Of a stretch of 64,000 nucleotides of DNA, positions 4,036 through 54,959 are shown piece by piece. This stretch comes from Eledone cirrhosa (lineage: Eukaryota). Where the stretch lies: the NCBI GenBank assembly GCA_964016885.1, contig OZ024742.1, positions 107,942,001 to 108,006,000 on the forward strand. Direction: 5' to 3'. A program made the position numbers and the translations under genes. The notes under the pieces are model-generated. The model was given only the letters and a program-made list of their open reading frames with translations, was not told where the DNA came from and ran no database searches. Numbering within the stretch: the stretch's first letter is position 1; the number at the start of each line of letters is the position of its first letter.

Positions 4036-4624
4036 TATGAAAACAGGGAGAAAGAGACGATTATGGGGAAGAAAAATATATTTTTTTCCTTTTTTGTTTC
4101 TCTCTCTCTCTTTTTCAGGGTTAGAAAATGATTAAAACGAGATGTTTTACTTTGTGTGAAGTGTTAAGGTATTAGTTGATTTATTTATAACATTATTTTT
4201 TCTTCCACATTGACTTTTTACGTTCCACATTATGCACGTTTTTTTTCCTTTTTCTTTTTTCTTTTTTCTTTTTTCTTTTTTCTTTTTCTTTTTTCTTTTT
4301 TCACTTCTTAAACCTTGTTTGTATATAACATTATTCTTTCTGCACCTTCTGTTTAACATGTGCGACACCACACTAATACATTCACTATCATTTGATAATG
4401 CATATAAATGCTGAAACCGGTAATAGACAATAATTAAATATATAAATAGATAAATAAATGCCATTGTTAAATAATAAGTAAATCAACTAATACGTTAACA
4501 CTTCACACAAAGTAAAAGATTTCGTTTTAATCATTTTCTAACCCAGAAAAAAGAGAGAGAGAAACAAAAACGGAAAAAAAAATATTTTTCTTCCTCATAA
4601 TCGTCTCTTTCTCCCTGTTTTCAT
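4036..4624. mobile_element. Fold-back pLTR of PLE family C, with an HHR at ~4385-4426 (+)
   Basis: Arms 4036-4185 and 4475-4624 are inverted. 4230-4624 matches the reverse complement of 46100-46470. HHR reads TTGATAA-t gcat ataa atgc t-GAAA-ccgg-TA. Confidence 0.8.
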
Positions 4625-4730
4625 ATATATATATATATATATATATATATATATAGATGTGTTTATTTTTTAATTTGAAATGTAGTCGTCCCGTTGTAAT
4701 TCAATATAATAATAGTCGATCACTATAAAT

Positions 4731-4910
4731 AATTGTTTCTACTTTAGGCACAAGGCCAGCAATTACCCAGTGCATTACTGGTACTTTATTTTATCGACCC
4801 CGTAAGGATGAAAGGCAAAGTCAACCTCGGCGGGATTTGAACTCAGATCGTAAAGGGACGTAACTATGCTGGAAAGCATGGCGTCCGACCCTCTACCGAT
4901 ATTGCCAATC
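4731..4910 (-). mobile_element. tRNA-derived SINE, family 1
   Basis: A box tggcaatatcggtagag and B box gagttcaaatccc on the minus strand. Body gccgaggttgactttgcctttcatccttacggggtcgataaaataaagtaccag recurs more than 10 times in the window. Confidence 0.85.
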
Positions 4911-4952
4911 ACTATAAATAACATATATGTCGAACACAGTCATTTATATATA

Positions 4953-5038
4953 TTCCTATTTCCCACTCTACTACCCTAAGTATTGAGTACTCTGGTGCGT
5001 TATGATCCATCTGGTTTCTTACCACAATTCCTTTGTTA
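4953..5038 (+). mobile_element. pLTR tail of PLE family D in (TA)n
   Basis: cccactctactaccctaagtattgagtac...accacaattcc recurs at 14570 (-), 20005, 26672 (-) and 57063. Confidence 0.7.
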
Positions 5039-50266: not shown

Positions 50267-51176
50267 CTAGCAGTGGTACCCGGCGTTGCACGGGATAAGG
50301 TATTTTGGAACGCGGGCCGCCAACAGACCTAATCGTGGAAAAACTGCATGCATGGACAATATGTAAAGAAAATGGACCGAATAGTCTGATGGCTGGATAA
50401 TCTTTAATATTTTCCTCGATGAAGCAGGAAAAATGCAGGTTTTCACCTAATGCGGGCCATAGGGGATAAAAAAAATGAATTTTTTTTATGTGCATAATAT
50501 GCCTTGAAATTTCGGGAAAATTGGCTAGACGTAACGCCTCAAAAAAGCCATAAAAAGCTGAAAAAATGAAGTTGTTTAACTAATGCGGGCCCTAGGCCAT
50601 AAAAAGTTGGATTTTATTTGCTCACAGTATGAAGAAGAGACTGACTAATACATAGTTATAATTTCAAGGATATCAGTCTGACGTAACGACTCAAAAAACC
50701 CCTAAAAACCTGAAAAAACGCAGTTTTTCGCCTAATGCGGATCCTAGGGGACCCAAAATTTGAATTTCTTTATGTGTATAACACTCCCTGAAACATAGGT
50801 AATACACATGTAAAGTTTGAAAAATGTCGGTTGGGTACTTCTCGAGTTTTAGGGATTCAAACTCACAGACACACACACACAAACAGACATCCTCAGGGAA
50901 GTGACGTAATGCAGACAGACAGATATTATAAGGGCGCGACGTTATATGTATGTATCTATTTAAAAATAGAAAGACAGAATTATATAGAGAGATCGGTAAA
51001 TTGCCTAATGCGGTACCTAGAGCATTTAAAATTTGAAATCTTTTTTGCTCAGAACACTCCCTGACACAGAAGTATTACATGTGTAAAGTTTGAAAACAGT
51101 CGGTTGAGTGGTTCTCGAGTTTTAGGGATTCAAACTCACACACACACACAGACATCCTCAGTTTTATATATATAGA
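50267..51176 (-). mobile_element. Non-autonomous Helitron
   Basis: 5' TCtatatatataaaactgagg and 3' hairpin cccg tgcaacgc cggg followed by CTAG. Internal subrepeats. Shares cagacagatattataagggcgcgacgttata with 26350. Confidence 0.82.
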
Positions 51177-51391
51177 TATATCATATATATATAATATATA
51201 TATATATATATATATATATATATATATATATATATATATATATATATATATATTCTCTCTCTCTCCCTCTCTCTCTCTCTCTATATATATATATTCTCTC
51301 TCTCTCTCTCTCTCTCTCTCTCTCTCTCTCTCTCTCTCTCTCTATATATATATATATATATATATATATATATATATATATATATATATAT

Positions 51392-54240
51392 AAAATACGT
51401 ATTTAAGAAAGCCACAACAATGCAGAGGGAAATCTCGAGGTAGGAAGTGAAAGATAGATAGGAAAAACAGGTGAAAGTGAAAATTGAGAGAGACAAAGAT
51501 GAAAACAAAACAAAGGTAGAAGGGTTACCGTAGTAGAGATTTAATCCCAATATTTCGGGCTCACGCCCATCAACGGGGGAAAGTTCCAAAAGGGGGGGAA
51601 CAGGCCAAGCGGAGAAAGTTGTGATGTCGTTAATACAGGAATGCCGTTATGGGGAGAAAATTCTTTAAAATTTAAACGAGGGAAAGAATGCGCGTGCGCG
51701 TGATAGGCTGTGGCAAAAGCTACTGACCAAATGGGTTAAATCAAGAGGGTGCGCTAGCGTGTGAAAGCCGTAAGATATGTGTGTGTAAATATATATATGT
51801 GTGTGTAACTGTGTGTGTATAAGTGTAAGTGTGTATATGTGTGAGTGTGTGTGTGTGTGAAAGATAGTGGGCTGTAGAAGCTGGAAATCAAAGGGTGTGA
51901 AAGGTGGTAGGTTGTAAAACATGTGTGCGTGTATAAATATAGATGTGTGTGTGTAAGCGTATGGGTATACATGTGTGTGAAACTGTGTGTGTATATGTGT
52001 GAGTGCGTTTGTGTGTGAAAGATAGTGGGCTGTAGAAGCTGGAAATCAAAGGGTGTGAAGGGTAGTAGGTTGTAAAAACATGTGTGCGTGTATAAATATA
52101 GATGTGTGTGTGTATGCGTATGGGTATGCATATACGTGCGTGTGTGTGAAGATAGCAGGCCGTAGGCTGTGAATGGTCACTATGGTTAAGTTAGCCATGT
52201 CAGCTCATTTCTCTCAGCCCGGTTGTTAAGTGGGGGTCTGAGGTTTTTAATAACAAGTGCTTCCTTTATCCTTAAGGATCCGATGCTGCGTTCAGTCGCT
52301 AGGACTGTGACCAAGGGTCTACACTGTGGGTTTCCGCATTTAAGGATGTGTTTACGGAAGGAAGATGCGTTGGTGTTGATATGTTCCTTGATACGAACAT
52401 GTAGGGGTCGGATGGTGCTACCTATGTAAAACTTGTTACATTTATCGCATTGAATCTTATATACGACATAGGTGCGTAGGCAATCTGCCCCCCGTATCGG
52501 GCAGTTGCTGAGGGAACACGTCCCATCTGACTCGTCGGGTTTGTTGGAGAGGCATCTTCGCAGCGATTTCACGTCGATTTCACCATCGAACACCCAGGAG
52601 AAGACGGGTCACTCGCCCTCCTCGACTTCCGTATCAACATCTCGGAAGAAGGAGACATAAACACCACCTTCTACCGCAAAGCAGCGTGCAAGGACTTATT
52701 TGTGCATTATAACTCAGCCCTCACCAACAACGCTAAGAGAGGCTATGTCATAAATGAACTGACACGGATCACTAACAGATGCAGCGACCCGATGGGTGGT
52801 CTCACCCATACCACGCAATTCCGTAATCTACTCAGATCTAATGGTTATCCCAAGCGACTGATTAACGGAATTAGAGACCCCAGACCCAATAGACAGACAC
52901 CCACTAGAAAATTAAATAATAGCAGGTGCTTCTTTAAAATCCCCCACCTGAGTGAATATACCACGAACGCCATCCGCAGGGCCATACGGACGGAGGGACT
53001 TGACATACATTTGGCCCACACAGGAACTTCGCTGCGAAGATGCCTCTCCAACAAACCCGACGAGTCAGATGGGACGTGTTCCCTCAGCAACTGCCCGATA
53101 CGGGGGGCAGATTGCCTACGCACCTATGTCGTATATAAGATTCAATGCGATAAATGTAACAAGTTTTACATAGGTAGCACCATCCGACCCCTACATGTTC
53201 GTATCAAGGAACATATCAACACCAACGCATCTTCCTTCCGTAAACACATCCTTAAATGCGGAAACCCACAGTGTAGACCCTTGGTCACAGTCCTAGCGAC
53301 TGAACGCAGCATCGGATCCTTAGGGATAAAGGAAGCACTTGTTATTAAGAACCTCAGACCCCCACTTAACAACCGGGCTGAGAGAAATGAGCTGACATGG
53401 CTAACTTAACCATAGTGACCATTCACAGCCTACGGCCTGCTATCTTCACACACACGCACGTATATGCATACCCATACGCATACACACACACATCTATATT
53501 AATACACGCACACATGTTTTTACAACCTACCACCCTTCACACCCTTTGATTTCCAGCTTCTACAGCCCACTATCTTTCACACACAAACGCACTCACACAT
53601 ATACACACACAGTTACACACACATGTATACCCATACGCTTACACACACACATCTATATTTATACACGCACACATGTTTTACAACCTACCACTTTCACACC
53701 CTTTGATTTCCAGCTTCTACAGCCCACTATCTTTCACACACACACACACTCACACATATACACACTTACACTTATACACACACAGTTACACACACATATA
53801 TATTTACACACACATATCTTACGGCTTTCACACGCTAGCGCACCCTCTTGATTTAACCCATTTGGTCAGTAGCTTTTGTCACAGCCTATCACGCGCACGC
53901 GCATTCTTTCCCTCGTTTAAATTTTAAATAATTTTCTCCCCATAACGGCATTCCTGTATTAACGACATCACAACTTTCTCCGCTTGGCCTGTTCCCCCCC
54001 CTTTTGGAACTTTCCCCCGTTGATGGGCGTGAGCCCGAAATATTGGGATTAAATCTCTACTACGGTAACCCTTCTACCTTTGTTTTGTTTTCATCTTTGT
54101 CTCTCTCAATTTTCACTTTCACCTGTTTTTCCTATCTATCTTTCACTTCCTACCTCGAGATTTCCCTCTGCATTGTTGTGGCTTTCTTAAATACGTATTT
54201 TACACATTTCACAATGCTTCAAGCAAACTTTAACACCCTC
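51392..54240. mobile_element. PLE family A relative as a large inverted repeat (arms 51392-52566 and 53029-54201)
   Basis: The + ORF 52702-53409 (thumb plus GIY-YIG) and the - ORF 52186-52593 encode near-identical C-termini, homologous to 1325-2317. Confidence 0.93.
54013..54048 (+). ncRNA. Hammerhead-topology motif with non-canonical core; inverted copy at 51545-51580
   Basis: ccc-CGTTGAT-gggc gtga gccc-GAAA-ta-TT-ggga. Confidence 0.5.
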
Positions 54241-54901
54241 ATATATATATATATATATATATATATATTTATTAAAATAACAGATTAAAGTTTAAGCAAA
54301 GAATCGCTGGATTTTAGTCTTCAATTTTATTATTATCACTATATATATATATATATATATATATATATATATATATTCTATATATATATATATATATATA
54401 TTCTATATATATATATATTCTATATATATATATATATACTATATATATATATACTATATATATATATATATATATATATATATTCTATATATATATATAT
54501 ACTATATATATATATATATTCTATATATATATATATATATATATATATATATATATATATATATATATATATATATATATATATATAGATAGATATATAT
54601 ATATATATATATATATAGAGAGAGAGAGAGAGATTCTTTATGTGAAAACGTGTGTTGAAACCAATATTGAACCAATATATATATATAATATATATATATA
54701 TATATATTCAGGTTTGAGGTTCACCACTGTATAGAGCTGGTCTATTCCGTATGGTCAATCGTAATGTAATAATATAGAGAGTACGCAACGTAAGGCAGTT
54801 CAACCGTCTTTGTTTTTGTAGTTGGTGGTGCTATTACGGAGTTAAATATTATAATGAAATGACAGGAGGCTGGATTTGTGTAAATCCTTGAAAGGTTTAT
54901 T

Positions 54902-54959
54902 ATACTATGATCATTTCAATGACCGGGTTCCGTATGAATCCGGTGATATCATCAGGTAT
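54902..54959 (-). ncRNA. Type-I HHR inside a fold-back cassette (arms 54850-54895 and 55040-55085)
   Basis: atac-CTGATGA-t atc accggattc atacg gaacccggt cat t-GAAA-tgatca-TA-gtat. Confidence 0.78.

Follow-up and report, generated by a model that had tools for sequence, protein, structure and literature searches.

A U·U mismatch in place of the G10.1-C11.1 pair at the base of helix II has several precedents among described hammerhead ribozymes. In the accessible part of Perreault 2011 (PMC3088659) it is named explicitly among the active variants, as a rare core variant that Fig. S6, from its layout, apparently places in phage PaP3; Ruffner 1990 is cited there for U·U permitting more cleavage than other mispairs, and the strict filter of that study discards mispairs at 10.1-11.1. 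The axolotl retrozyme HHR_Amex2 (Cervera and de la Pena 2020; PMC7229834) has about 60,000 copies, lies in tandem repeats, carries U·U at the base of helix II, self-cleaves (22% in 1 h as a monomer, more as a dimer) and forms circular RNA. Among Penelope-like elements (PLEs), File S2 of Craig et al. 2021 (PMC8557442) lists 25 Hydra-clade families, 14 of which have U·U on the two sides of stem II; of these 14, 11 are from Hydra magnipapillata (two of the Hydra motifs being identical), 2 from sea cucumber and 1 from a copepod; the table also contains G·U and U·C states, and U·U passes without remark in the accessible main text, which further reports that Naiad elements spread without canonical hammerheads. 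For the minimal hammerheads of PLEs, Cervera and de la Pena 2014 (PMC4209133) term G10.1-C11.1 highly conserved, note that an unpaired base is conserved between positions 9 and 10.1, permit extra N10 and N11 in their descriptor and report poor in vitro cleavage by metazoan PLE motifs. According to displaced columns in the PDF text of that paper, U's flank helix II in 2 of 56 aligned motifs (Hydra and Drosophila willistoni, PLE-linked), and the drawing of Dwi_HHR2, a motif with 440 sequences from PLEs and from tandem repeats of 450 bp, shows U U where helix II begins.

The window analyzed here is a 64,000-nt stretch of the Eledone cirrhosa genome, in which the first-pass annotation had described U·U in the hammerheads of five pLTR families. 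A scan that ignored positions 10.1 and 11.1, with core rules fixed only after the sites were known, returned 12 hammerhead motifs, 8 of them with U·U, whereas 100 dinucleotide shuffles of the window gave a mean of 0.76 motifs (maximum 4) and of 0.1 U·U motifs (maximum 2). The mismatch is read directly at every site that had been listed, and further copies were added (Table 1).

Table 1. Hammerhead motifs and associated elements in the window
Feature	Position	Strand	Details
Family B type I hammerhead	4385..4430	+	U3-A8 core 4392-4398; U10.1 4399; U11.1 4412; GAAA 4413-4416; helix III palindromic; stem I weak; predicted cut after 4422
Family B, second hammerhead	46295..46338	-	core start 46331; U10.1 46324; U11.1 46311
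Family C hammerhead	29709..29759	+	core 29714-29720 (A at position 4); U10.1 29721; U11.1 29733; stem II 3 bp; helix III a hairpin; stem I 5 bp
Family C, second hammerhead	26114..26164	-	U10.1 26152; U11.1 26140; not in first-pass annotation
Family C fold-back stub	47635..47758	.	two inverted arms, junction inside ribozyme core; not in first-pass annotation
Family A hammerhead, copy 1	36981..37023	+	canonical core 36987-36993; U10.1 36994; U11.1 37007; helix III palindromic; stem I 6 bp
Family A hammerhead, copy 2	37442..37484	+	core 37448; 461 nt downstream of copy 1
Family A non-coding tandem units	36724..37659	+	retrozyme-like insertion; short inverted piece at left end
Family D hammerhead	47908..47947	-	canonical core 47942-47936; U10.1 47935; U11.1 47925; stem II 2 bp; helix III palindromic
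Family D element, Hydra-clade	48117..49706	-	broken reverse transcriptase and endonuclease ORF; ribozyme 174 nt downstream
Family E hammerhead	54902..54959	-	canonical core 54955-54949; U10.1 54948; U11.1 54918; stem II long, interrupted; helix III palindromic
Family F (sixth U·U family), decayed copy	62760..62815 (62807)	-	position 3 mutated; U10.1 62800; U11.1 62789
G-C hammerhead, for comparison	55650..55705	+	motif at 55659; U3-A8 core
Hammerhead-like G-C copy, for comparison	19840..19895	+	motif at 19850; G-C at 10.1-11.1
Inverted partner of the 19850 G-C copy	19746	-	GAAA mutated
Copy (A·C) of large A-U/G·U family, for comparison	56020..56085	+	motif at 56028
A·A motif	3707	+	A·A at 10.1-11.1

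Judged from their sequences, the sites are type I hammerhead motifs, for which self-cleavage after position 17 is predicted. A15.1-U16.1, H17 and three helices with an open helix I are present, and the Watson-Crick purine-pyrimidine pair at 10.1-11.1, a consensus rather than an absolute feature, is replaced by U·U. The listed cores proved canonical (C3-U4-G5-A6-N7-G8-A9, G12-A13-A14) in families A, D and E and noncanonical in the other two: that of family B is U3-A8, a covariation already in print that counts as a hammerhead core, and is accompanied by a stem I of 2 contiguous pairs followed by a bulge, whereas family C lacks U4 and is a hammerhead-like variant rather than a canonical member. 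Similar U3-A8 covariant cores, palindromic helices III and a dimer model are found in the minimal hammerheads of PLEs (PMC4209133), and the Hydra-clade hammerheads of Craig et al. 2021 likewise have a type I fold 3' of an ORF with a C-terminal endonuclease, a short palindromic or hairpin helix III and (TA)n insertion. Monomer folding recovered the hammerhead fold at none of the five sites (z between -1.16 and +0.67) and is uninformative.

Rfam hammerhead models gave no match at the gathering score in the window and three further loci, the G-C motifs there included; at E up to 10 the best 150 of 398 matches in the window were all microsatellite-driven, and family A had no hammerhead match. When the descriptor of Cervera and de la Pena 2014 was emulated, family A was accepted with the extra N10/N11 and rejected without them, and families B, C, D and E were rejected either way because of core variants or a 2-bp or interrupted stem II. 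The proposal that strict descriptors miss U·U motifs therefore holds for the Perreault 2011 filter, which rejects mispairs, and for Rfam, which finds none, but not for the Cervera 2014 descriptor, which admits extra N10/N11.

The state of 10.1-11.1 was surveyed genome-wide in 160 evenly placed 10-kb stretches (1.6 Mb in total), which contained 230 matches versus 15.3 per shuffle. U·U was the commonest state (75), followed by G-C (62), A-U (35) and G·U (14), so that U·U is present in about a third of the hammerhead-like motifs of this 3-Gb genome; by exact pattern, U·U copies exceed 50,000. Among 24 families found at at least 2 loci, a count that includes two doubtful motif families (G·G and A·A), 6 had U·U, 4 had A-U, six other states had one family each, and G-C, the pair termed highly conserved by Cervera and de la Pena 2014, was the majority state in just 8. 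Families with A-U, U-A, G·U, C·A or A·G are also present, so the position is relaxed, and one large family (35 copies) itself mixes A-U (21), G·U (8), G-C (1) and U·U (1). U·U accounts for 6 of the 10 mismatch families, where 16.5% would be expected (p = 0.002, taking families as independent); when the U·U families are counted as 3 of 7 lineages, the excess over other mismatches is no longer significant (p = 0.09). Recurrence across families, as the first-pass annotation had it, is borne out: U·U is dominant genome-wide in families A, C, D and E and occurs in unrelated element lineages, namely Hydra-clade, Neptune/Nematis-type and non-coding. A tree of the endonucleases sets the Hydra clade apart from the other clades at 98/97; within that clade 10 of 14 inner branches are open, too poor a resolution for counting U·U origins. 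ORF-ribozyme pairings seen at the single loci L204, L221, L224 and L225 may be chance neighbors, and that at L224 probably is.

The description of all five families as pLTRs is borne out for B, C and D, which have a Penelope-like ORF upstream; A is a non-coding tandem repeat, and E had no ORF at the loci examined. The family D ribozyme (3,587 exact genome matches; U·U in 91/100) lies about 175 nt after a reverse transcriptase/endonuclease ORF at several loci, and the ORF of the copy read, in which CxxC and CxH are present and the first linker cysteine is missing, was assigned to the Hydra clade. The 3' half of family E has 4,855 exact matches, many arranged as inverted pairs, with U at 11.1 in 99/100 and both U's in 6/6; intact members of family F have U·U in 6/6. 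Neither family E nor family F had a linked ORF at the loci examined. The tandem and inverted arrangements of the families without a linked ORF at these loci resemble those of PLEs.

Family A carries U·U in 98/100 copies and forms arrays of up to 7 copies inside one 3.1-kb locus, with units mostly of about 440-510 nt and no ORF in the loci examined. Each of its non-coding tandem units bears a type I hammerhead, which makes it a candidate non-LTR retrozyme, and its closest match is the axolotl HHR_Amex2, which shares U·U and tandem repeats but has 350-bp units versus about 420-510 bp in E. cirrhosa. In axolotl there is one U·U family, whose activity was measured; in E. cirrhosa there are several, with predicted activity. 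A G-C sister of family A has a stem II of equal length in which both sides are changed at all 4 pairs, and the covariation score of the two together was 0.218 versus 0.073 in shuffles, a score that relatedness alone can raise. Both U's of family A are retained in contigs of two other organisms; two RNA runs returned nothing for it, which says neither yes nor no on expression.

U·U as a family state, which family consensus sequences with G-C or A-U were to refute, holds for A, C, D and E and fails for B, with its U-A majority. There it is the state of a subfamily: of 363 exact matches to a position-blind pattern, the first 100 comprise 54 U-A, 45 U·U and 1 A-U. Best-hit loci, with U·U in 33/36, overstate its share in family B. 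In most of the loci that keep the end of the ORF, the ribozyme lies about 420 nt 3' of a Neptune/Nematis-type GIY-YIG ORF; at L036:416-1063 (Pfam GIY-YIG, E = 1e-6) the ORF has a CX2-5CxxC linker and cysteines within its C-terminal GIY-YIG domain. This assignment, made from the endonuclease, covers Neptune and Nematis together. The sister of this endonuclease (support 100/98) adjoins a G-C ribozyme, a link that comes from one locus.

Two departures from the consensus, A at position 4 and U·U, are combined in family C, which has 21,952 exact matches genome-wide, U·U being present in 23 of 27 sampled copies. A canonical-U4 subfamily was considered and rejected, since the 2 sampled copies are fold-back junction artefacts and U4 has 90 genome matches. 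At L087, L121, L044 and L104 the ribozyme is preceded, at a distance of about 940 nt, by a Hydra-clade ORF, recognized by a CxCX5C linker, no CCHH, and CxxC and CxH around conserved E and N; the closest relative (53% identity) bears G-C. Another census family has C4 together with A·G. U4 is found in all cores tabulated by Craig et al. 2021, and the core of family C, A4 with U·U, did not appear in hammerhead-Penelope literature among the matches listed, although Lunse et al. 2017 may differ; a literature search for U4A hammerheads gave no match, and one for U4C hammerheads gave Perreault 2011 (PMC3088659) as its sole match. The change at position 4 beside U·U thus looks undescribed, and A4 may cripple the ribozyme.

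These observations are probably best explained by U·U being the best-tolerated mismatch, reached by near-neutral steps, in type I motifs at the ends of Penelope-like and tandem-repeat elements, which is likely also why it is found in several families. It is inherited from amplifying master elements rather than arising by decay of copies, and is therefore tolerated. The RNA would be cut after position 17, releasing element-length RNA, and in families A, B, D and E, with palindromic helices III, cleavage would occur in dimers that derive from tandem copies. The two U's may stack below the sheared A9·G12 as a wobble-type pair, and families would drift by single changes among G-C, G·U, U·U, U-A and A-U because modest cleavage would suffice. 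Tolerance alone does not obviously require that U·U should match G-C in copy frequency.

The other half of the proposal of a tolerated or selected subtype, positive selection, seems unlikely. U·U would serve as a tuning device that makes cleavage slower or conditional; full-length RNA, cut only as a dimer, would thereby survive for translation and reverse transcription. Its rank as commonest state by copies (75/230), its presence in two of the three largest families, its recurrence in the three kinds of lineage named above and its share of published Hydra-clade families (14/25; PMC8557442) would fit such a role. However, families with G-C, A-U, U-A or G·U amplify alongside them in this genome, family B has amplified about equally with U-A and U·U, and the axolotl U·U monomer is cleaved more than the other axolotl motif, albeit on a different scaffold (PMC7229834). 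Less likely still, the ribozymes of some families are dispensable and degenerated in their masters, leaving U·U and the position-4 change as relics, as might be suggested by the ratio of A4 to canonical matches in family C (21,952 versus 90), the C4 family, the proliferation of Naiad elements (PMC8557442) and the weak cleavage of metazoan PLE motifs (PMC4209133). Against this, the core, GAAA and helix III of family A are invariant across 38 distinct sequences, in part because the anchor pattern imposes it, its stem I pair 3 is paired in 103/103 copies via five pair types, and family C retains three helices and every other core base. It is very improbable that the U's are unpaired extra nucleotides after A9 and before G12, the next pair serving as 10.1-11.1, as the extra N10 and N11 of Cervera and de la Pena 2014 and the G-C next pair of family B would allow, because the pair next to U·U varies by family (A-U, C-G, U-A or G-C) without G-C preference, sister families have G-C or U-A in place of U·U with no shift of register, and the U's co-occur, whereas true extra-nucleotide families have one insertion plus G-C.

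Tolerated U·U is thus likely to be a known variant rather than a new subtype. Prior description as a common feature of PLE hammerheads had been named as grounds for giving up the subtype, and the accessible literature supplies it (Perreault 2011; Cervera 2020; Craig 2021 File S2); the finding therefore adds scale, not kind, the mismatch that is rare in Perreault 2011 being frequent here in retroelements. What goes beyond published U·U is the repeated switching between G-C and U·U in sister families and the A4 that is fixed together with U·U in family C (about 22,000 copies). U·U motifs are undercounted by Rfam and by filters anchored on G-C. It is doubtful, but conceivable, that 10.1-11.1 is a two-state switch at which U·U has been repeatedly selected versus G-C, and that family C is active with A4 and U·U; if true, a second working solution of the hammerhead core would be hidden in invertebrate genomes. 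Sister families that share a scaffold but differ in G-C versus U·U, or U-A versus U·U, provide natural constructs with which to ask how much cleavage a Penelope element needs, and a position-4 change fixed in a 22,000-copy family offers a test of whether such ribozymes must work.

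Type I hammerhead motifs with U·U at 10.1-11.1, the base of stem II where the textbook pair is G-C, are real, inherited and common in Eledone cirrhosa. All of the sites listed in the first-pass annotation read from the sequence as core-U-stem II-U-GAAA, and they belong to families A to E of the table. A scanner that requires three helices and ignores 10.1 and 11.1, built with these sites already known, reports 12 window motifs, of which 8 are U·U, against a mean of 0.76 motifs and 0.1 U·U in 100 shuffles. The window further contains motifs with G-C, with A·A and of an A-U family, together with one decayed U·U copy of a sixth family (F). 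The U3-A8 core of family B is a published variant. The A·A pair, at the base of a short stem II, occurs at two loci.

Coordinates of the features (in the window, or in further loci of the genome where an L-number is given)
Feature	Position	Strand	10.1-11.1 state
Family A cores	36987, 37448	+	U·U
Family B cores (U3-A8)	4392 (+), 46331 (-)		U·U
Family C cores	29714 (+), 26159 (-)		U·U
Family C A4 cores	29714-29720 (+), 26153-26159 (-)		
Family C fold-back stub	47635-47758		
Family D core	47942	-	U·U
RT-endonuclease ORF upstream of D	48117-49706	-	
Family E core	54955	-	U·U
A·A motifs	3707, L087:3345	+	A·A
C4 family	L145:5560 (-), L145:8208 (+), L168:4759 (+)		A·G
C·A family	L121:8487 (+), L153:3680 (-), L171:9439 (-)		C·A
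RT/GIY-YIG ORF, first	797-2317	+	
RT/GIY-YIG ORF, second	52189-53406		
Broken LINE-type RT	6789-12085	-	
Direct duplication (1.06 kb)	6789-7842, 10785-11839		
14-bp tandem array	15730-18870		
Palindrome (82 nt)	56904-56985		

Patterns with N at 10.1 and 11.1 were counted throughout the 3.0-Gb genome, and states were tallied by hand in the first 100 matches by position. U·U was found in 98 of these 100 for family A (26,180 matches) and 91 for family D (3,587); for family E, whose 3′ half gave 4,855 matches, 11.1 was U in 99 of the first 100 and both positions were U·U in 6/6 sampled copies. Family C showed U·U in 23 of 27 sampled copies. Family B is the exception (363 matches; first 100: U-A 54, U·U 45, A-U 1), and this position-blind pattern overturned the near-uniform U·U seen at 33 of its 36 best-hit loci. 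Both U's of the family A motif are unchanged in covering contigs from two other organisms. Family A also holds a minor C·A/C-G subfamily (L079, L201).

U·U is already known as a tolerated variant. A natural U10.1-U11.1 that supports more cleavage than any other mispair is named by Perreault 2011 (PMC3088659, the latter point citing Ruffner 1990), and about 60,000 cleaving U·U motifs are described in axolotl (Cervera 2020, PMC7229834). Cervera 2014 (PMC4209133) calls G-C "highly conserved" in its text, and displaced text of its PDF places U·U in 2/56 aligned motifs, both linked to Penelope-like elements (PLEs), and in the drawing of a Drosophila willistoni family of 440 copies. File S2 of Craig 2021 (PMC8557442) tabulates 25 Hydra-clade families, headed canonical motifs, 14 of them with U·U, and no comment on it was found in the main text. 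The proposal that U·U is an undescribed feature therefore falls. That descriptors miss it holds for Rfam, with which none of these U·U motifs was found, and fails for the Cervera 2014 descriptor, which permits one extra base per side; when emulated, it passes family A only with extra bases permitted; families B to E are rejected for reasons other than U·U.

The family D motif lies ~175 nt downstream of an RT-endonuclease ORF, in the window and at many loci, that of C ~940 nt downstream of a different one, and that of B ~420 nt downstream of a GIY-YIG domain. By the definitions of Craig 2021, C and D proteins bear Hydra-clade marks and the B protein a Neptune/Nematis linker. Family A forms non-coding tandem arrays resembling a retrozyme, and no ORF linked to E or F was found in the loci examined. 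For two related Penelope-like RT/GIY-YIG ORFs (68-72% identical), the second accompanied by an inverted copy, a search of the 1.7 kb that follow found no associated hammerhead apart from the A·A motif, which lies 1.4 kb past the first ORF. In the endonuclease tree, where most Hydra-clade branches are without resolution, B is sister to a domain that adjoins a G-C ribozyme at one locus (support 100/98); C groups most closely with a G-C family (support 83/88, 53% identical) and not with D (32%). The G-C sister family of A has equal stem length and both-side changes at 4/4 stem II pairs. These G-C relatives of A, B and C indicate that U·U occupies the G-C register and that three or more lineages have either gained or lost it.

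A census of 160 stretches of 10 kb, evenly stepped through the genome, gave 230 motif hits, distributed as U·U 75, G-C 62, A-U 35, G·U 14, U-A 8, A·G 8 and others 28; shuffles gave 15.3 each. Restricted to canonical or U3-A8 cores (n = 188), G-C numbered 60 and U·U 51. Among 24 families of at least two loci each, eight are G-C, six U·U and four A-U; the remaining six are one family each of U-A, G·U, C·A, A·G and, as doubtful cases, G·G and A·A. U·U makes up 6/10 mismatch families where base composition predicts 16.5% (p = 0.002, counting families separately although they are related); collapsed to three lineages, p = 0.09. The position is thus relaxed, and U·U is probably, though not securely, the preferred mismatch. 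Three of the four copies of the C·A family are C·A.

The motifs are inherited, the stems of family A covary and 10.1-11.1 states interchange. Cleavage after position 17 would process the element RNA, and the palindromic helix III may give dimer activity, as in published PLE and retrozyme motifs. Related families here include all of the states G-C, G·U, U·U, U-A and A-U, and single changes connect these. U·U would stack next to the sheared A9·G12 pair. The best reading of these sequence comparisons, and a likely one, is that U·U is tolerated and lies on a near-neutral path; against it count monomer folding, in which the hammerhead fold was not obtained, and a U·U frequency that matches that of G-C. 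Selected tuning by U·U is unlikely, and degeneration of the ribozyme, most plausible for family C, is more doubtful still. With U·U in the G-C register, it is very improbable that the two U's are unpaired insertions.

U·U accompanies A4 in the family C core, with 21,952 exact matches genome-wide vs 90 with canonical U4; no earlier report of this combination was found in the literature searched, whose coverage is incomplete. A family with C4 and A·G (6 copies, 5 loci), apparently of the Hydra clade, is a second doubly altered core. In family C fold-back stubs (window, L175, L234), the arms are often joined inside the ribozyme core, near the same point.

The window also contains a 14-bp tandem array of >200 units, in most of which the minus strand reads the heptamer of the 5′ hammerhead core but lacks the GAAA half, a likely coincidence; a broken LINE-type RT with a zf-RVT domain and a direct duplication; and a perfect palindrome with a (TA)n centre, whose Rfam microRNA match is below threshold.

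What remains beyond the published U·U is its genome-wide frequency, the switches between sister families, and the family C core, in which A4 and U·U are fixed together.
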